Shown piece after piece: positions 17,916-64,000 of a stretch of DNA of 64,000 nt. The position numbers were made by a program, and so were the translations under genes. This DNA is from a virus: IMG/VR virus record IMGVR_UViG_3300006802_000078, positions 27,626 to 91,625 of that record. One strand, given 5' to 3'. The stretch's first letter is position 1. Every line of letters begins with the position of its first letter. The notes beneath the pieces were generated by a model. The model saw only the letters and a program-made list of their open reading frames with translations. It was not told where the DNA came from and ran no database searches.

Positions 17916-18731
17916 TCAGCCCTCGTTGTCCCACGCCACGCACTGGCTGTGCCAGCGCAGCTCCCGCTCGGAGAAGCGCCGAGGGCCAGACAGCGGGTCG
18001 CCGCTGCGCCCGTCGCTGATGTAGGCGGCGAGGTCGCCGGGGTCACGCCAGCTGACCGGGCCCTCGGCCTCGCGCCGAAGCTGCCGGGCCTCACGCCGGC
18101 GCGCCCCGCGCATCGTCTCGGCGTCGTCAGCAGCCTGCTCCCGCACCAGGCGGGCCAGCTCGTGTTCCCCCCGCGAGGCGCACGCGGCCTCGATGCGGGG
18201 CACGGCGGCCCGGAGCTGGACGAGCGCGGGCTCGACTCGCAGCTCGGAGCGGTCCCGGTTCATGCCGACAGCGACGCACGCCACCGGCTCGACAGCGCGT
18301 GGCCCCGCGGGCACCGTCACCGGGCCGTAGCCCAGGCGCACGCGCTCCTCCGCACGGGCGCGGACAGCTGCGGCACCGAGGGCCAGGCTCAGGGAGCCGA
18401 AGCCGGGGGCGGCGCCGATCACATCGAAAGGCCGCGTCGGGTACTGCGCGTCCTCCCATTCATCCCAGCGGCACTCCTCACGCAGCTCGGCCCACGTCAG
18501 GTTGACCTCGTCGAGCTGCGCCGGCGGGACCTCCCGGGGCCAGCGCGAGCGGCGCTTGCTGCGCCGGCCAGTGCCGGGCACAGGAGCACCGCGGGTAGGC
18601 TCGCAGTAGCTGGGCTCCGGCGCGGGCTCCGGGGTGGGCTCGGGGGCGGGCTCCTCGGCGCAGCGCCGCAGGAAGATGAAGCGGAGCGCAACGCGTGCGC
18701 GCAGAGACAGACCGGGCTCGAAGTACATCAT
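17916..18731 (-). CDS. hypothetical protein (271 aa) with PEPAPEP linker
   Basis: AGGAG RBS before MMYFEPG. Confidence 0.6.
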   Translation of the reverse strand: MMYFEPGLSLRARVALRFIFLRRCAEEPAPEPTPEPAPEPSYCEPTRGAPVPGTGRRSKRRSRWPREVPPAQLDEVNLTWAELREECRWDEWEDAQYPTRPFDVIGAAPGFGSLSLALGAAAVRARAEERVRLGYGPVTVPAGPRAVEPVACVAVGMNRDRSELRVEPALVQLRAAVPRIEAACASRGEHELARLVREQAADDAETMRGARRREARQLRREAEGPVSWRDPGDLAAYISDGRSGDPLSGPRRFSERELRWHSQCVAWDNEG

Positions 18732-19128
18732 CGGCTCCTGTTGTCGGCTCGCTGGGGCCGACGTGTGACCATCGCGCAGGGGCAGCGGACCATCCCGCTT
18801 CCCGCGCTCCCAGGCCACCCACCTGCGTTGCCAGTCGCAGGTGAGCGCTTCGGCACACGAGACATGCTGGCTGGCCTCGTGCTGCGCTCGTGCCTTGCAG
18901 TCACATGACTGCACCTCTCGGGGGAGGGGAAGCATTCTCGGAGACCTTGGCACCCCTGCGACAGCAGGCAGGCGGCAGCGCGTCCGCTCCCCCGATGGGC
19001 GGGCGGGCCCCCAAAGCCGGGTGTTCTTGGCGCGTGGCCGGCGTCACGCGGGAAGGTCAATCACACATGGCGCACCTCTTGGTGGTGGGGGTGTTCGCGT
19101 ACGGTCGTGCACTGCTGCGGGCACCTGG

Positions 19129-19169
19129 TACAGTGTTTCACGTGTTTCATTTTCGCGTGAGACACTGTA
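19129..19169. repeat. 16-bp imperfect inverted repeat
   Basis: TACAGTGTTTCACGTG..CGCGTGAGACACTGTA. Confidence 0.8.
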
Positions 19170-19325
19170 AGTGCTTGGAATCCTGTTCGCGGATCCGTTG
19201 TTTTATACCGAGTGCACACCAATGGAGGATTTTTGTGGCGAGCGGAAAAAAGAGGGGACCTCCTCGGGGGGTTTGTTCGCTTACGGCTCGCCGGATGGCT
19301 CCGAAGTGCAACCAGTATTTAGAAG

Positions 19326-19345
19326 TATAACTAAGTATAGTTATA
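19326..19345. repeat. AT-rich palindrome
   Basis: TATAACTA-AGTA-TAGTTATA within the most AT-rich tract of the window. Confidence 0.85.
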
Positions 19346-19568
19346 AGATTACTGATTGCTGCTGCTGCGGCGGTTGGCGCGGCCCTTCGTGGGCCGCGCT
19401 GCCGTGGTTGTAGCCCCCGGCGGGGTAAGCCGAAGCCGAGAGGGGGAGGTGGCGCAACACTGGGGCAGGGCTGCGCCGTAAGTAGCTGAATATGCGGGGG
19501 GTAAGGCAATATGCAATATAGTGCATATACGCTTACCGTGATGCACATTGTATGCGCGGGAGTAAGCG

Positions 19569-20123
19569 TTACCGGGACAGCTTGTGGCGGATCTCGCTGT
19601 AGTCCTGCCACGCGGCCTCACTACGGCCCGCCGCCAGAGCAGACCCCCAAGGTGACACACGCATGCGGACCTGGGGATCGACAGTCGCCCCCTCCCACGA
19701 AGACACGCGCGCTGGCGTCGTCGTAGAGGTTGCGCCGCTGCGGACTACGATGCGCTTCCGCTCGCACATGGTACGCAGAGCCGCATCCATGAGCGTACCG
19801 ACGTGCCCCTGCGGTAGCGCGATAGTCAGGGTCACTACGTCATCCCCCTTCGGCATGGCGCGGGCAACCCCCGCCCACGAGCGAAGCTCGCCCGCCGCCT
19901 CCCCTGCCAGGCGCGCGCGCTCCGCCCATGCCTCGTTGTCCTGCACGTCCTGCGCCGCCCGCGCCAAGTGCGGCGCGCGGTCCTTCCTCGCATGCGCCAA
20001 GCGCAGAGCGGCCCCTTCGGGATCCCTGACTTGGGCCCTACACTCCGCCGCCCCCTGCGCGAGCAGGTCACACGCAGAGAGCAGCACGGCGCGAAGCTGC
20101 GCCGGCGTCGCTTCGATTACCAT
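19569..20123 (-). CDS. hypothetical protein (184 aa)
   Basis: AGGAGG RBS before MVIEAT. Confidence 0.6.
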   Translation of the reverse strand: MVIEATPAQLRAVLLSACDLLAQGAAECRAQVRDPEGAALRLAHARKDRAPHLARAAQDVQDNEAWAERARLAGEAAGELRSWAGVARAMPKGDDVVTLTIALPQGHVGTLMDAALRTMCERKRIVVRSGATSTTTPARVSSWEGATVDPQVRMRVSPWGSALAAGRSEAAWQDYSEIRHKLSR

Positions 20124-20149
20124 TACGCACCCCTCCTGGTTGCACTTTC

Positions 20150-21285
20150 GCTCTATCTGTTGACCCTACGCGCGGGCACACCCCTTCGATGGGCTGGCGC
20201 GTAGTCGGAGCCGAAAGCAAAGACATAAGCATAGGGCCAGGGCAGCTTAGCTGCCCTGGCCCATTCGGGTTTGGCGAGCCCAGCAACGGCGCGAGGGCGC
20301 CGATACCAGCTTGACCGTGGGTTATCCCCGCGGCCCCTGTCATCGCCCGCTAGGGCTCTGGTTCGAAGCTGCAATATCGACCAATGGGCTCCCCGTATCG
20401 TTTCCGGATCATGGCCCATTGTTCCCTCGTGGGTGCGCCGTTGCGGGGCCCACCTACACTGTCGGCTTCGGGATAGCCGACGATAGCGACCGATCGCCGT
20501 TGTCAATGGCGACGCGCTATCTGTTTATGTGTGTGAATACCGTTCAAACGACCGCCGCCGGTATCCTACCCGGTACGCTACGCCGTTTCGTCGCTTCACC
20601 CTACTGTATGTGAGGCGGTATTGGCGTCTATCCGTCGAGACGCGCTACCCACCGCCGATCCTTTGCTACCCGCGCCACGATCCCGCTTCCTGCCCTCTGG
20701 TTCCTTTCACCGGGAGCGCCGGGGCCGCGGGCTACTGCCACCATGGGGGCCGCCTACGCTTGTGAAGGGGGCGCCCATGGCGCGGGGTAGCTGCTACCGC
20801 CGTCGCTGAGGGAGGGGGGGTCGTGGGGGGTGTCAAAGGGCGCAAGCCGACTACCTGTCGCCGACCCTCGGGGGCTACCTCCGGGGCGACGGATCCCGCT
20901 ATCGAGCGGCCGAGTGGACCCTTGGGTGATGCCATAGGGCGCGCACGTCGAGACCCGGATCCCCACTGGTGTCCCGGGCGACAGCTACAGAGGACGGAGG
21001 GAGGGCTTACCGGGTAGTCGCGCACGGGGCGGAAAGTGACGCGTCGTCGCTTGCCGTGGCGTTACTGCCTTCCTCCTCCCGTGCGCCGACATAGGGGCCG
21101 AAGCCCTTGCTGCGGGTGGGGGGCGGATCAGATCACCAGACAGGGGACACCGTCCGCTATGCCGCGGAGGAGGCGCCTGTCTGTACGGGTAGGGGCTGAA
21201 AAAGACCGAAGGGGGCCGAGCGGGGGTTAGCCGTCCGCCCTCTGAGGAGGACCAGGGAGTCCCCTGGTCCTGCACAGAGGGCAGC
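20150..21285 (-). ncRNA. candidate large structured RNA / leader (~1.1 kb)
   Basis: No credible ORF; more than a dozen consecutive stem-loops, including a perfect 13-bp hairpin at 20234-20262. Confidence 0.45.
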
Positions 21286-21288
21286 GGG

Positions 21289-21924
21289 CTACCAACCGCC
21301 GACCTTGCGGGAGGCCGCCTTGCGCCGCGCGCCCGGGACAGGGATCGAAGCGTTCCGACCGCGGAGGTGACTGTCCATCGCGGACAGCGCCTCCCCGTGG
21401 GAGCGGTTGCTGCCGTTGACGGCGACGGCGGCCGCGATCGCGTGGGTGATCGCCTCCTGAGCTTCCTGGTAGCTGGGCGCCGCGGTGATCAGGCGGAGGA
21501 TTGCGGCCTTGACGGCGGTACGCTCCGCGCCGACCGTGGAACCATCGAAGTAGGCGATCGCGCTCTTGCCTTCATCGGGGAGGTAGACCAGGAACGCAGG
21601 ATCGGCGGGGAGCGCGGAGCGGGCCTCGTCCTTCCCCAGCTTGGCGCCGACGCGGTAGCGGCCGATCATGCTGGCGACGGCGGGATCGGCGGGATCGGCG
21701 GAGGGGGCCACGGTGTCCAGGGTGGCCCGGAGGTTGGCGATCGTGTCGTCACGATCGGCGATCGTCGCCAGGAGGGCGGCGATCGTGGCGTCGCGGTCGG
21801 CGATCGTCGCCAGGAGGGAGACGGCGTCGGTGTTGGTGTCGGTGTCGGCAGGGGCCGGCGCCACGTCGACGACGACGGGGGCGGAGGGGGCGGAAGCGGC
21901 GGTGGTGCTGGTCTTGCGGGACAT
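21289..21924 (-). CDS. first gene of the early array; coiled-coil repeat protein (211 aa)
   Basis: AGGA RBS; 14-aa tandem repeat LLATIADRD(A/D)TIA. Confidence 0.75.
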   Translation of the reverse strand: MSRKTSTTAASAPSAPVVVDVAPAPADTDTNTDAVSLLATIADRDATIAALLATIADRDDTIANLRATLDTVAPSADPADPAVASMIGRYRVGAKLGKDEARSALPADPAFLVYLPDEGKSAIAYFDGSTVGAERTAVKAAILRLITAAPSYQEAQEAITHAIAAAVAVNGSNRSHGEALSAMDSHLRGRNASIPVPGARRKAASRKVGGW

Positions 21925-21975
21925 CGGGTCATCCTACGGGGTGCGGGGCCAGGGGAGATCCGTGGCCACGGCAGG

Positions 21976-22004
21976 AATGTACTACCGCGCTATGGCGCTG
22001 GCAA
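21976..22004 (-). promoter_or_regulatory. sigma70-type early promoter
   Basis: TTGCCA-N17-TACATT, ~50 nt upstream of the 21924 start. Confidence 0.7.
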
Positions 22005-22318
22005 GGCGGTACGCGCAACCCTACCCCGAAAGGAGAAGGAACGCGCGCGAGGCAGCCTGGCAGCCCGGCAGGGGGGCAGCTCGGCAGCTCGATCGCGGCG
22101 GGGGGTTCCGCCAGGCGGCCGACGGAGGGGGGGTCGGCCAGGATGCCGGTGCCGCCGTGGTCGTAGCTGAGGGGGAGGGGGCATTCCGCCCGCGCGGGAC
22201 GTGACCGCTACGCGTGGTGCCCCAAAAATCCGCAGCACCTCCCGCCCCTCCCACCATTTATTCGTTGCGCGCCACGCAACCAGCATGCTACTCCTCACCC
22301 ACACTCCAGGTGCCAGCC

Positions 22319-30562: not shown

Positions 30563-32377
30563 CTACTGCGTGACCGGGACCTTGGGCTCTCCGATGGGCC
30601 CAGGCCCCGGGGGCACCGCGCCGACGCTGGGGGGCGCACCCGCTGCGACGTTGCCAGGCGCCGCGGCGGCGCCCAGGTCGAGCCCAGGGGGAGGGGCGGC
30701 TTCGCCCTGCGCTCCGGCTTCCAGTCCTGCGGCCATGCCCGCTCCGGCCGCCCCACCTTGGGCTGCGGCCATGGCGTCGGCCTGGGCCTTCAGCTTCTCC
30801 TCGAACTCCTTCTTCGTGAGCAGGACGTTCGCGGGGGCGCCCATCATCCGCAGGATCCAGTCGACCATGCTATCCGCGTCGAACCGCGGGGTACCCTGCA
30901 GCAGGGGGGTCAGGGCGATCATGCGCTCCATCACCACCTGGGGATTGACCTGCTGCCGGGGGTAGACGTCGATCTTGTACCGCGCTGGTGCCTTGGCGAA
31001 GAGCGCCTTCGACGCGTAGCCCAGGCGCATGTCCTGGAGGAACGCGTCCCGTGGGAGCCGAGGGCGGGGTGAGCTGCGGATCATCCGATGGTGCTTCGCG
31101 GCCAGCTCGGCCACGGCGTTGTCGATGGGGCGACGCCGAGAGCTGATCCGGTCTCGGGCGTCGGCCTGCATGACCGCCAGCTCGGTCGCGGTGCGCGCCC
31201 CCGTGGACTGCCCCCGCTTGCTGTCCATGAGCGACGTCTCGAAGGAGCAGCTCTCCCGCATGAAGTTGATGAAGCCGGTGATGGCGGGGGCTTCGTCTGG
31301 CAGGGGCAAGGGCATGAAGGCGTTGGCCAGGTTCCAGTCCTTCGCCGCCCCCACATGACCTCCCTCGACGTTGGCTGGGACGAACGCTCCTACCGGAGCG
31401 CGCGCTGCCTTCAGCAGGGTCTCGAGCTTCACTCGCGAGGAGTCGTAGAGCATCTTCGGAACCAGGCGGTAGGCGATCTCCTGCTGCAGGGTGGTCAGGT
31501 CGTTGATGCTGTCCTGCTTGTCGAGCAGCAGGTGCACGTCGCTGTGCCCGAACATGTCGCGCCCGGTCTCGTCGAACGCCAGCCTCGTGAGGGGCAGCTC
31601 ATCGAACCCACCGCTGCGGAGCACCACGCCGCCTCCCAGCCCGCGCTGGTGGTAGTGGACCACGTCGCCCGTGTGGCAGTCCCAGAACTGCCAGATCCAC
31701 ACCCACCGGCGCGAGTTGAACAGGTCGCGGTTCTGGGACCAGGTGGTGGCATCGGTCAGCCAGTCGGGCCAGTAGATGTCCGAGCTGAACGCCCGCATCT
31801 GGTCTTCGGTCATGCGGTAGTAGCCGCTGCGGACGCGCTCCCAGAACAGCCCCTCCGGGATCGGGGTGAGGTAGAGGAAGTAGGCGCTCTCGTCGAAGTA
31901 GGTCGCAGTGGGGTCGAAGTGGACCGACCCTGGGCGCGCCGTGGTCGTCACCGGCAGCCCAAGCTCCATGTCCAGCTCGGTGACGAACCACGCCTGCTTG
32001 CAGATCTGCGAGTGTAGGATTGCGGTGTTGATGCGCTCGTCGAGGCGGCTGATGTCGAACGTCCAGTTGATCAGCGCGTCGAGCCCCGCCTGCTCGTCGC
32101 CATCGAGCGGGGAGAAGCGGCCGTTGAACGTGGCCGACACGGGGCCGGACAGGTTGGAGCGCGCGGAGTCGATGACGGCGTAGATCACGTTGACCGTGGT
32201 CAGCAGCCGCGCCCTACGCCTGCCCGCCTCCCCCGGGTTCCGCCGGAGGTAGTCCGCGCCGAAGTCGCCCATCCACGCAGCCTGCGCCCGGTTGATGTTG
32301 GGCAGGTCGACGTTGCGGTACCGCGCGACGTGGGCGTCGATGAGCCGGCTCAGGGCGGCCTTGCTGCTGCTGTTCAT
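30563..32377 (-). CDS. portal protein (podovirus/P22-like)
   Basis: 604 aa directly downstream of TerL; VHFDPTA, QDSIN, GARTATE, helical C-terminus. Confidence 0.85.
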   Translation of the reverse strand: MNSSSKAALSRLIDAHVARYRNVDLPNINRAQAAWMGDFGADYLRRNPGEAGRRRARLLTTVNVIYAVIDSARSNLSGPVSATFNGRFSPLDGDEQAGLDALINWTFDISRLDERINTAILHSQICKQAWFVTELDMELGLPVTTTARPGSVHFDPTATYFDESAYFLYLTPIPEGLFWERVRSGYYRMTEDQMRAFSSDIYWPDWLTDATTWSQNRDLFNSRRWVWIWQFWDCHTGDVVHYHQRGLGGGVVLRSGGFDELPLTRLAFDETGRDMFGHSDVHLLLDKQDSINDLTTLQQEIAYRLVPKMLYDSSRVKLETLLKAARAPVGAFVPANVEGGHVGAAKDWNLANAFMPLPLPDEAPAITGFINFMRESCSFETSLMDSKRGQSTGARTATELAVMQADARDRISSRRRPIDNAVAELAAKHHRMIRSSPRPRLPRDAFLQDMRLGYASKALFAKAPARYKIDVYPRQQVNPQVVMERMIALTPLLQGTPRFDADSMVDWILRMMGAPANVLLTKKEFEEKLKAQADAMAAAQGGAAGAGMAAGLEAGAQGEAAPPPGLDLGAAAAPGNVAAGAPPSVGAVPPGPGPIGEPKVPVTQ

Positions 32378-32388
32378 GTCCGTGGCTC

Positions 32389-34563
32389 CTATGCGTCGCC
32401 AGTGATGCCCCAGGCTATCGCGTCAGGATCGTACAAGCTGCGCACGCCTTCCGGCGTGGCTCCTACACGATTCGCTTCCTGCTGGGCGAGGGCCTCCAGC
32501 ATCTTCGCCGCAGTGATGCCTTGCGCCCCGCCGGCGAAGAGGGGGGCGAGCTCCTGGTCCATCTCAGCCGCAGCGCGACTGCGCAGGGCGCTGATGATGG
32601 CGGAGGCGCTGACGAGCTCCTGTCGCAGCGCCGCCTCCTCCTCCGTGTCCTTGCGGGGCAGGCGGAACACGGTGGTGACGAAGATGTCGGCGGCGATGAC
32701 GTAGCATCTCGCTTGGTCGAAGTGGTGGCGCGCGCCGGTGTTGTCCGCGCGCTTCTGTCGCGGCTTCCAGTCGCCGTTGTACTGCGCCAGCTCGAGCAAG
32801 CCGCTGCGGCTCCGCAGCTTGTGCCTCCGGCTGCGGAGGCCTTCCGCGAGTCGGGCGGTGCCCTGTTCGATGCTCGACTGCGTCGCCTTCCACCCCGGCA
32901 GCCCGTCGGTGTCGTACCAGATCGGGTGTACGTTGCGGTCGCGCAGGACGGAGATGGTGCCGCCGGCCCGCTCCAAGGCGATGGCGCAGGGGAACTCTGC
33001 GGAGGGGGAGTAGAGCTTCTGCACCGCGACGATGATGTCCGCCATCTGCTCCGGCAGCACCTGGCCGCGCCACGCTGCCACCTCGTGACCGTCCCGAGCG
33101 CGGAGCACCACCAGGGCGGAAGGGTCGCCGCTGCCCCGCTTTGAATAGCCGGCGGTGTCGGCGATGAGGACGTACATCTCGTCGACCGACGGCTCGTCGA
33201 AGATCTCCGCTCCGTAAGGGCCCTCCCGAAGCGCTGGGCGCTGGTCGGCCTCGGCGAGCATGTCGGCGATAGCGTCGGCCGGCATGAGGGTGTTCCCCCC
33301 ACCGAGCCACCCGTGGTAGGGGCTGGGGGGGTACTTGCTGTCGAACTTCGGGTAGCTGCCGCGGAAGGTCGACACCGTCTCCAGCCGGCGGAACATCAGG
33401 TGCCCGTCGCTGATCCTGCTGGCTTCCTCACTGAGTCCCGCGGACTGGGAGTAGCGGTAGATGATCTCTGCAAGCCGCTCCTCCTCCTCCGTCCGCTTGA
33501 AGTCGGGGGGGACGTCCGCCTGAAGAGGCTCCAGCCGCCACCAGGGGACGAAGATGGGGTGGAACCGCCCCTGGTTGTCGAGGGCAGCGAACCACTTCTG
33601 CTGGTGGTCGCTGCCGAAGGCCCCCCACGTGGACTCCAGGAATACCTGGGCGTTGCCACGCTGGTTGAATGCGGGGAAGACGTTGCCGGCCGCCCGGGTC
33701 TGATCGAGGATCTCCCCCCACTCACTCAGGATGATGCGGTCCACGGCGTGGCCGATACCTGCCGTCGGGCCCCCCAAGCTGATGACCTTGATGAAGCCCC
33801 CGTGGAGAAAGGTCATGCGGCGCTCGCTCCCCGACTTCTGCGACTGGTCGAGGGGCACGCGGAGGCACTTCGGCAGGTGGCGGTAGGCGAGGCGGATCCG
33901 TCGGAACAGCTCGGTGGCGACTGCGTCGCTGTTGGCGGCGATGACGCACTGCAGCCCGCGGAAGTACATCGCGTCGCGCAGGATGATGGCGAGCGACAGC
34001 ACAGTCGACATCATCGCTTGGCGGCACTTGCCCACGATGTGCCACTGGTCCAGCCGGGAGGGCTCGAGCCCGAGCTCCTCCACCGCAGCGAGGCGCTCTT
34101 CCGCGGGCAGCGCGCGGATGGCGTTGAGCGCGTGGGTGCGCATCACCACCGCTTCCTGCCAGGGCGTGGGGTCGGCCAGCCCGAGGTTCTCCGGGGCTTG
34201 GTCCCCCAGCGGGTCGCGCTTCTGCAGCTTGTTGATGGTGCTCAGGCGGAAGAAGGCGGTGGGGTGGTTGAGCGCGTCCAGGATCAGGGTGTAGTCGAGG
34301 TGGGCCGTCTGCTCTTCGTGGTCCGGGTCGTCTCTGTCCGGATCGAAGATGTAGACTTCAGCGTCCGGAGCGTACAGGCACGACAGGGGGTGGCGGGGCG
34401 GCATCTCAGGGCTGTCGAGGCCTACCACCAGGGGGCGAGAGTGCAGTTTGCCGAAGATCGGGTCCGCGGGATCCAGCGCGCGCCGGACCAGGACGTCGAG
34501 TGGGTGGATGTGACTACGATCGGCGACGACGCCTTCCGCGGAGATGCCGAGCTCGGCTTCCAT
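32389..34563 (-). CDS. terminase large subunit
   Basis: GKCRQAMMST (Walker A variant), IILSEW (Walker B), LEST coupling motif, FVPW, nuclease IADTAG..GDPSA..HFD. Confidence 0.9.
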   Translation of the reverse strand: MEAELGISAEGVVADRSHIHPLDVLVRRALDPADPIFGKLHSRPLVVGLDSPEMPPRHPLSCLYAPDAEVYIFDPDRDDPDHEEQTAHLDYTLILDALNHPTAFFRLSTINKLQKRDPLGDQAPENLGLADPTPWQEAVVMRTHALNAIRALPAEERLAAVEELGLEPSRLDQWHIVGKCRQAMMSTVLSLAIILRDAMYFRGLQCVIAANSDAVATELFRRIRLAYRHLPKCLRVPLDQSQKSGSERRMTFLHGGFIKVISLGGPTAGIGHAVDRIILSEWGEILDQTRAAGNVFPAFNQRGNAQVFLESTWGAFGSDHQQKWFAALDNQGRFHPIFVPWWRLEPLQADVPPDFKRTEEEERLAEIIYRYSQSAGLSEEASRISDGHLMFRRLETVSTFRGSYPKFDSKYPPSPYHGWLGGGNTLMPADAIADMLAEADQRPALREGPYGAEIFDEPSVDEMYVLIADTAGYSKRGSGDPSALVVLRARDGHEVAAWRGQVLPEQMADIIVAVQKLYSPSAEFPCAIALERAGGTISVLRDRNVHPIWYDTDGLPGWKATQSSIEQGTARLAEGLRSRRHKLRSRSGLLELAQYNGDWKPRQKRADNTGARHHFDQARCYVIAADIFVTTVFRLPRKDTEEEAALRQELVSASAIISALRSRAAAEMDQELAPLFAGGAQGITAAKMLEALAQQEANRVGATPEGVRSLYDPDAIAWGITGDA

Positions 34564-34667: not shown

Positions 34668-34713
34668 CTCTGTGTGAACAGCCATGCCGCACGCTGCGGC
34701 CAGGAGCCCTGAG

Positions 34714-35781
34714 ATGCCCGAGCTCGCAACCGCAGACGCCCTGAACCTGGTCCAGGCCGACCGTCGCAAGGGTGTGGTCAGCACCATGGTCAACGACCTG
34801 GTGTTCTTCCAGCACGTCTTCGAGAAGGGCGGCATCACCACCAAGTACGGAGGTGGCAGCTCGATCGAGTTCATCCAGCACGGCCAGGCTCCCGCCACCG
34901 GTATCGGCCTCTACGCCGGCACCGAGGCCGCGCCGATCGGTCGCACCCAGATCCTGCGGAAGGGGCAGACCGAGCTGCACCACATGATGGTCGTGATCGC
35001 CATCCCCAACCAGGACCTGATCACGAACAGCGGCCCCTCCCGCGTCGAGGAGATGTGGAAGGTCTACACCGAGGCGACGGTCACCGGTACGCACCGGGAC
35101 ATCGAGACCTTCTGGCACACCGGCGTGTCCGAGGGCAACGTCTTCTCGACCGCGGCCCTGTCCGGACTGCTCAGCGGGAACGGGCAGTTCACCGGCGGCC
35201 TCCGCATCGGCGTCGAGAACGGGATGCTTGAGTACCGCACCCCGGCGCTCCAGTCCGCCGGCGCCGCCTCCTTCATGGGGATCACCCGGAGCACCACCTA
35301 CAACTGGTACAACAACTTCGGCTTGGTCACCACGATCGACACCGACTTCCACGAGGTCTTCGGCAAGACCATCCGCGAGGCCTCCCGCTTCGCTGGCAAG
35401 GCCAACGCGCCGTACATCGCCTTCGCGGACCCCACCAGCTTCGGCAAGCTCCACGCGTGGCGCTACCAGCCGGTGCGGGTGACCAGCATCGACCAGGCCA
35501 CCGAGCGGGACAACTTCCACTCGGTGAAGATCGGCAGCTGCACCTTCTACGAGGCCCGCGACATCGACATCACCCTGTTCTCCGGGGATGCGGCCAACGG
35601 GGTGGTCAACGGCTACAACCTGAGCGACATCGAGATCACCTTCGCGGAGATGCCCAAGCTCAGCAACTACGAGAAGGTGGTCATCAACCAGGACGTCCTG
35701 GCCTGCAGCTACATGATGCGGCTCCAGTTCCTGGTCAAGAACCTGCCGTCCCACTGGGCGCTGGCCGGCACCGCCCGCTGA
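34714..35781 (+). CDS. major capsid protein
   Basis: ~355 aa; AGGAG RBS; very strong codon bias; GGGSSIEF segment; followed by a GC hairpin and a decoration-like gene. Confidence 0.8.
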   Translation: MPELATADALNLVQADRRKGVVSTMVNDLVFFQHVFEKGGITTKYGGGSSIEFIQHGQAPATGIGLYAGTEAAPIGRTQILRKGQTELHHMMVVIAIPNQDLITNSGPSRVEEMWKVYTEATVTGTHRDIETFWHTGVSEGNVFSTAALSGLLSGNGQFTGGLRIGVENGMLEYRTPALQSAGAASFMGITRSTTYNWYNNFGLVTTIDTDFHEVFGKTIREASRFAGKANAPYIAFADPTSFGKLHAWRYQPVRVTSIDQATERDNFHSVKIGSCTFYEARDIDITLFSGDAANGVVNGYNLSDIEITFAEMPKLSNYEKVVINQDVLACSYMMRLQFLVKNLPSHWALAGTAR

Positions 35782-63257: not shown

Positions 63258-63724
63258 TGATCGCGCTGTGGCGAGGTCCGGGGCTGGTCTTCGCTGGGGA
63301 AGCATCCGGCTCCTCCCCCTCCGTGGCGGTCGCCCCGACCGTGGCCATCGACGCCGTCACGAACAAGAACGGTCTCGACCCGATCGCGCTCTCGGCCGAT
63401 GTGACCGGCGGAGTTGCCCCCTACTCCTATGCGTGGACCGCCACCGGCCCGGACAGCGCCACCGGTAGCTTCGACGATGCCACCTCCGCCACGCCCACTT
63501 TCACGCCCGACGTCAACGGGTACTGGGTGATCGAGCTGACCGTGACGGATGCGAACCTCCTGACGGGCTCCGACACTGAGGACTACCGAGCCGGCTACCC
63601 GCCCCCGCCTGTGGAGTTGGTGCCGGCGCCGGTCGTATCCGACCCAGATGCGGCCTACAAGGTGCGGCTCTTTGAGGTCGGCACGAACATGGACAACACC
63701 CTCATCGTGGAGTCGTGGTCATGA
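63257..63724 (+). CDS. PKD/Ig-like domain protein
   Basis: VTGGVAPYSYAW..ATPTFTPDVNG..LTVTD; GTG start overlapping the upstream TAG. Confidence 0.7.
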   Translation: MIALWRGPGLVFAGEASGSSPSVAVAPTVAIDAVTNKNGLDPIALSADVTGGVAPYSYAWTATGPDSATGSFDDATSATPTFTPDVNGYWVIELTVTDANLLTGSDTEDYRAGYPPPPVELVPAPVVSDPDAAYKVRLFEVGTNMDNTLIVESWS

Positions 63725-64000
63725 GCCTCACAACCCAAGAGTGGCGCTATGTCGGCTCTGCGACCGTCGGCGCCGCCACCGTCCACGCCTGCCTGGAGGC
63801 GCTCTACAGCCTCGGGACCTCGGCCACCTACTACGACGCGACCTCCCGCACCGAGGGGGCTGGGTCCGCCTGGACATGGACCGGGCGCCGCTTCCAGGAC
63901 GGCGGAGCCACGGAGTGCCTCTACCCGATCCCACCCACCGATCCGACCGGGCAGTGTGTCCTCTTCGCGGGCTCCGCTACCTCCAAGACGCCGACGATGG
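63721..64000 (+). CDS. hypothetical virion-region protein (truncated by window)
   Basis: ATGA-coupled start MSLTTQEWRYVG, open to the window end. Confidence 0.65.
   Translation, partial: MSLTTQEWRYVGSATVGAATVHACLEALYSLGTSATYYDATSRTEGAGSAWTWTGRRFQDGGATECLYPIPPTDPTGQCVLFAGSATSKTPTM

Follow-up and report, generated by a model that had tools for sequence, protein, structure and literature searches.

The put RNAs of phage HK022 are ∼70 nt long, fold into two stem-loops directly downstream of the early promoters, and act in cis to bring about processive antitermination. Phages with a T7-type portal commonly carry direct terminal repeats that adjoin a non-coding early region. The large, ornate RNAs of the GOLLD and ROOL families (Rfam; cryo-EM study PMC12286853) occur in phages or prophages and are long ORF-free segments, two properties shared by the locus analysed here.

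This locus, in a 91,625-bp virus genome of IMG/VR, had been described in an initial annotation as an ORF-poor stretch near the head of a leftward operon, tiled with stem-loops over ∼1.1 kb and a candidate for a large structured RNA or a processive antitermination element. The stretch is real as a non-coding region, and its placement was correct, as it lies just inside the leftward unit. The claim of a large RNA was not supported, because stems of 7–9 bp read by hand in DNA of 66–68% GC occur at chance level. The main value of the present analysis is corrective, and it narrows the region of interest to a candidate of ∼260 nt and two hairpins. The features discussed are listed below; coordinates are those of the window, the 64-kb stretch of DNA that was analysed, which comprises bases 27626–91625 of the source record.

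19569–20123, minus strand: gene 2, orphan protein of 184 aa (strong AGGAGG ribosome-binding site, spacing 8; GC3 0.80)
20124–21288: first non-coding stretch (NC1), the exact gap between gene 1 and gene 2
20124–20233, minus strand: 5′ untranslated region of gene 2, with a CUACGCG/CGCGUAG helix and the AGGAGG ribosome-binding site at 20132–20137
20234–20262, minus strand: hairpin 2, a perfect GC-rich stem of 13 bp with a 3-nt loop
20268–20458, minus strand: predicted multibranch RNA domain of 191 nt, directly upstream of hairpin 2
20480–20506, minus strand: promoter-like site TTGACA-15-TATCGT (10/12, consensus match only)
20510–21226, minus strand: non-coding spacer of ∼715 nt, where local structure does not exceed chance
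21227–21291 (core 21233–21285), minus strand: hairpin 1, with an outer stem of 8 bp and an inner stem of 10 bp
21289–21924, minus strand: gene 1, orphan protein of 211 aa (GC3 0.90)
21976–22004, minus strand: sigma-70-like promoter candidate of gene 1, TTGCCA-17-TACATT (9/12, consensus match only)
18729–19568, minus strand: second non-coding stretch (NC2), with more inverted repeats than NC1
30563–32377: T7-type portal (PF12236, family match)
32389–34563: large terminase (family match)
34684–35781: major head protein (weak match)

The locus resembles put in that a candidate structured RNA heads a long phage operon, upstream of terminator-like hairpins, and by analogy a read-through function would account for the expression of gene 2 and later genes past hairpin 2. 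However, the candidate seen here is a 191-nt multibranch fold, and the 1.1-kb stretch lies behind a gene. Since gene 1 intervenes, the stretch as a whole does not occupy a put-like position directly downstream of the promoter at 21976–22004. The left end of T7-like phages (terminal repeat, early promoters, RNase III site) provides a second parallel, with ∼1 kb of non-coding DNA heading the early region of a phage that has a T7-type portal, and strong hairpins of irregular shape on which RNase III could act. Unlike in those phages, the genes here are divergent, a gene lies upstream of the stretch, and no phage RNA polymerase was detected among the proteins scanned.

The phage and its non-coding stretches

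The GC content of the window is ∼68%. Genes lie on the minus strand to the left of ∼21.9 kb and mostly on the plus strand to the right of ∼22.2 kb. Few of the phage proteins match any family. At its far end, the leftward operon encodes a DUF927 primase-helicase, an SF1 helicase and a family-A polymerase fused to a UDG domain. The absence of a detected phage RNA polymerase is consistent with host-type promoters and terminators. An ORF of 4447 aa carries LPD23 as its sole domain. Its comparison with solved structures gave two weak matches only (E ≥ 0.018), both to succinyltransferase chains, and the motif Rx3Kx(5-9)[YF]G was absent in a crude motif test. N4-type hairpin promoters and a virion RNA polymerase were unsupported, as no polymerase domain was detected in the 4447-aa ORF.

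Near-identical copies of the phage sequence were present in freshwater metagenomes from five studies. Parts of 20124–21288 were contained in seven DNA runs, and no RNA run was among those listed as containing the stretch. Contigs from four other runs were 100% identical to the stretch, base for base, and therefore offered no microdiversity that could be used for comparison. A blastn search of 19500–22100 against 50,697 phage records gave no match. When 5.8 billion proteins were queried with gene 1, gene 2 and the portal, each matched only itself, and peptide-pattern scans of IMG/VR for the same three proteins gave no match. A complete HMMER search of 1.84 billion representative proteins for the gene next after gene 2 likewise returned only the query, and IMG/VR viral contigs scanned with hairpin patterns gave 0 matches. 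A 20-mer scan of JGI metagenomes produced one 37-nt match, in a lipoprotein-like coding ORF of an unrelated contig, which was judged to be due to chance. Comparison of genome contigs with a phage Mg-chelatase-like protein found just a conserved-motif match in a Bacteroidota MAG, which is uninformative on the host. The phage represents a lineage without relatives in any collection searched. The homologues envisaged in the initial annotation were absent from all of these searches, and consequently no base pair has covariation support.

GC content by codon position was flat from ∼21300 to 20150, with a difference between maximum and minimum of 0.00–0.14, compared to 0.3–0.48 in the flanking genes; genuine genes of this genome have a GC3 of 0.85–0.95. 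A genome-wide scan for non-periodic stretches of at least ∼1 kb detected two only, at 18786–19895 and 20046–21395 of the window. Inside the stretch, no start codon had both a Shine-Dalgarno motif and high GC3. Ten stop-to-stop ORFs, taken from all six frames, gave no match in PHROGs at E ≤ 1, and a single, sub-threshold match to a Tau/MAP tubulin-binding repeat in Pfam at E ≤ 1 (E 0.031; 14.6 bits vs a 27-bit cut-off). No paralogue was found in the phage's own genome by tblastn of all six frames, and neither a tRNA nor a tmRNA was present. The lack of a family match, of a paralogue and of any ORF with a ribosome-binding site ruled out hidden coding. NC1 is non-coding, and the flat periodicity, together with the absence of an ORF with a ribosome-binding site and of any Pfam or PHROGs family, confirmed the earlier description of it as ORF-poor.

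Gene 1 contains a 42-nt tandem repeat encoding a repeated ATIAALLATIADRD-like motif and has weak matches in PHROGs; its promoter candidate sits in a divergent intergenic region of 289 bp. Gene 2 probably encodes a real folded protein, judging from its Atlas model (pTM 0.66). No usable relatives of either gene emerged from Atlas look-ups. The gene after gene 2 starts at 18728, not at 18953, which leaves a second gap, NC2, beyond the lone orphan gene 2. Apart from NC1 and NC2, the 91.6-kb phage has no long non-coding stretches.

Helix content and folding of NC1

All the stems named in the initial annotation are present in the sequence, and each could be located. Their number did not bear out the description of the stretch as tiled with helices. 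With perfect stems of at least 7 bp and loops of up to 80 nt, 11 were observed in NC1, compared to 8.0±2.9 in dinucleotide shuffles (40 of 200 shuffles reached 11) and 11.0±4.0 in other 1165-nt tiles of the genome. Local folding of the interior was also at background. Minus-strand windows of 150 nt starting at 20250–21100 had a mean z of ∼−0.4, against a genome-wide sense-strand background of −0.25±1.10, in which 1.3% of windows fall below −3. Across 20500–21150 z was near zero on both strands, and the two folds that had been emphasised gave values of −0.67 (20415–20560) and −0.88 (20655–20800). Sliding-window z-scores, proposed earlier as a check, thus went against structure throughout the interior, but three elements did exceed chance.

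Folding of the whole region (1171 nt) gave a z of −7.7 on the minus strand and −5.1 on the plus strand, with seven control stretches ranging from −2.4 to +1.2. Taken alone, this would favour one large RNA, as would the global-shuffle z of −3.4 for the interior (20270–21225, minus strand; −2.0 on the plus strand), which is somewhat beyond the seven controls. However, the value of −7.7 arises largely from hairpin 1, hairpin 2 and the 191-nt domain. Moreover, composition-preserving block shuffles of the same interior gave −3.1 on the minus and −3.5 on the plus strand, indicating that it is without strand preference.

We then ranked the local structures of the whole genome on both strands (RNALfold, span 260; 21,378 structures) by their energy residuals after regression on length and GC. 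Four of the six top distinct loci lay inside NC1 or NC2, which make up 2.2% of the genome. The only outliers in NC1 were 21227–21291, which is hairpin 1, and 20213–20469, which comprises the domain and hairpin 2. The ∼715 nt of interior between them (20510–21226) is no more stably folded than random or coding sequence. On the transcribed strand this spacer has a C-rich 5′ half, with C/G of up to 2.6 at 20761–20840.

A search of the 64-kb window with Rfam 15 at gathering score gave 0 matches. Three sub-searches at E ≤ 10 found hairpin look-alikes only, all sub-threshold, namely miRNA models (28 bits vs a gathering score of 62) and Rubella_3 (14 vs 35 bits). The Rfam comparison proposed earlier therefore yielded no family even at this permissive threshold, which excludes GOLLD and ROOL as families. 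Unlike those RNAs, NC1 matches neither covariance model at E ≤ 10 and mostly has no above-chance structure. A generic large structured ncRNA was also unsupported, as stability beyond random is lacking along most of the length and helix counts are at chance. With ∼715 nt at background and no Rfam model, the reading of NC1 as a single structured RNA of ∼1.1 kb was not supported. What survives of the structured-RNA claim is narrower: three elements are exceptional and the domain is specific to the transcribed strand, so that a smaller structured RNA, or a regulatory element acting as RNA, such as a terminator or a leader, is plausible.

The two hairpins and the 191-nt domain

Hairpin 1 ranked first among the 21,378 local structures. 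Its stems are all Watson-Crick, and flanking pairs extend the core and take in the stop codon of gene 1. The predicted energy is −65.1 kcal/mol and the z of −5.16 is equal on both strands. There is no U-tract directly after the stem, with 2 T in the 15 nt of the tail; ∼20 nt downstream lies a weak 4-bp hairpin followed by U5. Hairpin 1 is a candidate tail-less terminator, 3′-end stabiliser or RNase III-type site.

Hairpin 2 exceeds every other perfect hairpin of the 91.6-kb genome in length and has a folding z of −4.8. Its minus-strand tail (20219–20233) contains 9 T in 15 nt where 16% T is expected (P = 1.4e-4), and its plus-strand tail contains 5 T in 15. This T-rich tail, found on the minus strand only, makes hairpin 2 terminator-like for leftward transcription, as judged from its sequence. 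The tail is interrupted, and the hairpin fails the stricter U-tract rule (5 T in 8) of the terminator scan. As no promoter can be seen in the interval from hairpin 2 to gene 2, complete termination at this hairpin would leave gene 2 unexpressed.

Both hairpins can be compared to intrinsic terminators, including the tail-less ‘I-shaped’ terminators of high-GC bacteria. Both have GC-rich perfect stems; hairpin 1 lies right after a stop codon, and hairpin 2 lies before the next gene, with a tail enriched in T on the transcribed strand only. Their stems are, however, unusually long for terminators (8 + 10 bp and 13 bp, respectively), hairpin 1 is without a U-tract, and the interrupted tail of hairpin 2 departs from the standard rule. 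As both are perfect Watson-Crick palindromes, a role at the level of DNA fits equally well.

The domain is closed by a bipartite helix of 19 bp, GGUGGGCCC.GCAACGGCGC / GCGCCGUUGC.GGGCUCGCC, and its junction bears a CAAUGGGC/GCCCAUUG arm and a long branched arm. On the minus strand its folding energy was −103.7 kcal/mol, compared to −76.1±4.3 for shuffled sequences (z −6.42), and the minimum free energy structure was identical to the centroid and accounted for 21% of the ensemble. The complementary plus strand gave a z of −2.0 and a minimum free energy structure at 0.2% of the ensemble, and was 18.6 kcal/mol less stable than the domain. The fold was retained in both the minimum free energy and the centroid structure of the full 1171 nt, and was unchanged when hairpin 2 was removed or blocked. 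Windows of 150 nt cut the closing helix, which explains why they did not detect the domain. In the RNALfold ranking, 20213–20469 was recovered on the minus strand only, at rank 5, or fourth among distinct loci when the two strand rows of hairpin 1 are counted as one.

Structures from coding regions in the same ranking reached z-scores of −4.5 to −8.5 and minimum free energy frequencies of 0.15–0.29 with similar strand asymmetry, and the numbers for the domain are therefore suggestive, not decisive. The case for it is made by four points taken jointly, namely these values, its position in non-coding DNA, its sense orientation, and the neighbouring promoter-like and terminator-like sites, which face the same way.

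The promoter-like site at 20480–20506 has a perfect −35 hexamer, a short spacer of 15 nt and a weak −10 hexamer, and the predicted start is near 20473. It is one of only 11 sites of this quality on the minus strand of the 64 kb. Together with the site, the domain resembles a phage sRNA or structured 5′ leader, with a promoter-like site, the 191-nt fold, a hairpin with a U-rich tail, and a ribosome-binding site and gene following one another on one strand. It differs from described examples in that it matches no family and has no alternative antiterminator pairing. The 5′ arm of hairpin 2 had no strong alternative partner, and blocking the hairpin cost 25.4 kcal/mol. In the absence of a competing antiterminator pairing, the domain and hairpin 2 are unlike a classic riboswitch or attenuator. 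A riboswitch or transcription attenuator leader was rejected, given that no mutually exclusive pairings exist and the fold of the domain is identical without hairpin 2.

Explanations for NC1

The explanation that we prefer, with confidence and doubt about evenly balanced, is that NC1 is a mosaic transcriptional control region made of separate parts, and not one large RNA. The non-coding status of the stretch and the exceptional stability of its three elements are observed, as is the strand bias of the domain and of the U-rich tail. Transcription of NC1, its 5′ and 3′ ends and every function proposed below are inferred. Hairpin 1, placed on the stop codon of gene 1, would most likely end or stabilise the gene 1 transcript. 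The ∼715-nt spacer would be untranslated and, if transcribed, its C-rich 5′ half may be open to Rho-dependent termination. Such termination would insulate gene 1 from the genes downstream, though the spacer may equally be filler. The last ∼350 nt may act as one unit consisting of the promoter-like site, the 191-nt domain, and hairpin 2 with its U-rich tail. A stop of transcription at hairpin 2 would yield a small RNA of ∼245 nt, and read-through would give gene 2 a structured leader of ∼350 nt.

A more specific proposal, which we regard as doubtful, is that the domain and hairpin 2 (20213–20473, minus strand) constitute a phage-encoded regulatory RNA without a known family. Acting in cis, such an RNA could, for example, carry the host RNA polymerase past hairpin 2 and the terminators beyond it, into the early operon of ∼20 kb; acting in trans, it could be a small RNA aimed at the host. 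In a stronger form of this reading, an RNA of ∼1 kb would span the whole stretch and have 20213–20473 as its 3′ domain. Should the 191-nt domain prove real, an orphan structured RNA would sit where early transcription is controlled in a lineage without database relatives, and would possibly be a new means for a phage that uses the host RNA polymerase to time its early genes.

The stretch could instead be decayed or never-functional filler, a remnant of lost early genes in which the hairpins are ordinary gene-end terminators and the domain is a chance extreme. We consider this unlikely. It would account well for an interior that matches shuffled and coding sequence in local folding and helix count, and for the gene-internal structures which, selected likewise, show similar z-scores and ensemble frequencies; the orphan status of both flanking genes also fits a fast-evolving early region. 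Against it, traces of codon periodicity are lacking in NC1, none of its frames shows homology, and it has no paralogue. Apart from these two long gaps the genome is densely packed, and the concentration of four of its six most extreme local structures in them is at odds with filler, as is the adjacent and co-oriented arrangement of the domain, the T-tailed terminator-like hairpin and the promoter-like site.

A DNA-level element, which could be a terminal repeat, a concatemer-processing site, a packaging site or a replication origin, also appears unlikely. In one version, the palindromes, ∼970 bp apart, would bound a direct terminal repeat that was collapsed in assembly, or would be cruciform-extruding sites, and the long non-coding zone would hold the virion DNA ends. 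The two hairpins are the longest perfect palindromes of the genome, consist of Watson-Crick pairs throughout and are equally stable on either strand, and the interior between them shows no strand bias in block shuffles. Terminal repeats would also suit a phage with a portal of the PF12236 type, in keeping with what is generally known of such phages, and an ORF that continues through the joined ends of the contig indicates that the record may be a circularised assembly with its true ends elsewhere. The strand specificity of the domain and of the T-rich tail of hairpin 2 is, however, not needed by a DNA element. Iterons or repeated motifs beyond chance were absent from 18800–21400; GGTAGC was only mildly enriched. 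The GC content of 20124–21288 is 66%, with a minimum of ∼52%, and it contains no AT-rich unwinding segment; the AT-rich part lies in 18729–19568. An iteron-type replication origin was rejected on the lack of clustered direct repeats and on this GC content. Cumulative GC skew made no sharp turn at the stretch and gave no origin signal, and there was no two-fold step in contig depths, though these are too coarse to count.

A single structured ncRNA of ∼1.05 kb running from hairpin 1 to hairpin 2, whether GOLLD/ROOL-like or a long processive-antitermination element, is very improbable: the stretch is bounded by the genome's two strongest hairpins, the second of them terminator-like, and long-range pairing is conceivable between its 5′ half, rich in C, and its G-rich 3′ half, but the excess stability is mostly local, the interior is at background without strand preference, neither an Rfam match nor a homologue that could reveal covariation was found, and gene 1 separates the stretch from the sole canonical promoter-like site upstream.

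The reading that we favour also takes in NC2, beyond gene 2, in which the following elements were seen.

19129–19169: inverted repeat of 14 nt
19246–19265: terminator-like stem GAGGAGG-UCC-CCUCUUU with a T6 run
19307–19359: AT-rich hairpin
19377–19399: hairpin of 9 bp
near 19508–19527: palindrome ATATGCA-N6-TGCATAT

With its U-tract terminator-like site and AT-rich palindromes, NC2 is the probable site of the promoters and operators that serve the long leftward operon. Its folding z-scores were −5.9 to −6.2 on the minus strand and −3.6 to −3.9 on the plus strand, and it contains nine stems of at least 7 bp, compared to 3.9±1.8 in shuffled sequence.

The second non-coding stretch of the leftward operon

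Inverted repeats were more strongly enriched in NC2, the non-coding gap at window positions 18729-19568 just downstream of gene 2, than in the reported stretch NC1, the gap between genes 1 and 2 (20124-21288). The following elements were located within NC2.

18729-19568, elements in NC2 (window positions)
19129-19169, 14-nt inverted repeat
19246-19265, U6 terminator-like site
19307-19359, AT-rich hairpin (28% GC)
about 19508-19527, palindrome ATATGCA-N6-TGCATAT

Judged from its sequence, NC2 looks like a candidate cluster of operator and promoter elements serving the long leftward operon.

The orphan genes flanking the reported stretch

The product of gene 2, an orphan ORF on the minus strand (19569-20123), gave a confident Atlas model (pTM 0.66), and the fold closest to this model was an ADP-ribosyltransferase cluster, with a TM of 0.45. 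Since this value lies under the usual same-fold level, an ADP-ribosyltransferase-like fold is taken only as a lead from the predicted structure. Gene 1, the orphan ORF on the other side of NC1 (minus strand, 21289-21924), contains a 42-nt tandem repeat at 21722-21805 with 83% identity, which codes for a recurring ATIAALLATIADRD-like heptad-rich motif. The antisense (plus) strand of this gene was a strong local-structure outlier at 21315-21497, with a z of -6.3.

The giant ORF and the contig ends

47654-60997, plus strand, single alanine-rich ORF of 4447 aa (window positions)

The only Pfam match in this ORF was to the LPD23 domain, which is linked to large polyvalent proteins. Comparison with solved structures gave no meaningful match, and a T7-like RNA polymerase motif B was sought in the ORF and not found. 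The ORF probably encodes a giant protein that is either part of the virion or ejected. A plus-strand ORF with a GC3 of 0.81 runs uninterrupted over the contig-end join (window 63648-64000 plus genome positions 1-125), and because it remains open there, the 'linear' record may represent a complete assembly, either circular or terminally redundant, that was cut within a gene.

Features elsewhere in the record

Outside the window, a 255-nt segment extends across the intergenic gap that separates two genes of the replication module. Its folding z was about -8 on both strands, and when local structures were ranked across the whole genome it came second of the distinct loci. Whole-record coordinates (L003) are used below.

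L003:6982-10059, minus strand, family-A DNA polymerase, a single 1025-aa ORF whose N-terminal domain belongs to the uracil-DNA-glycosylase superfamily
L003:10484-10738, the 255-nt structured segment
L003:10638-10665, 10-bp perfect hairpin inside this segment
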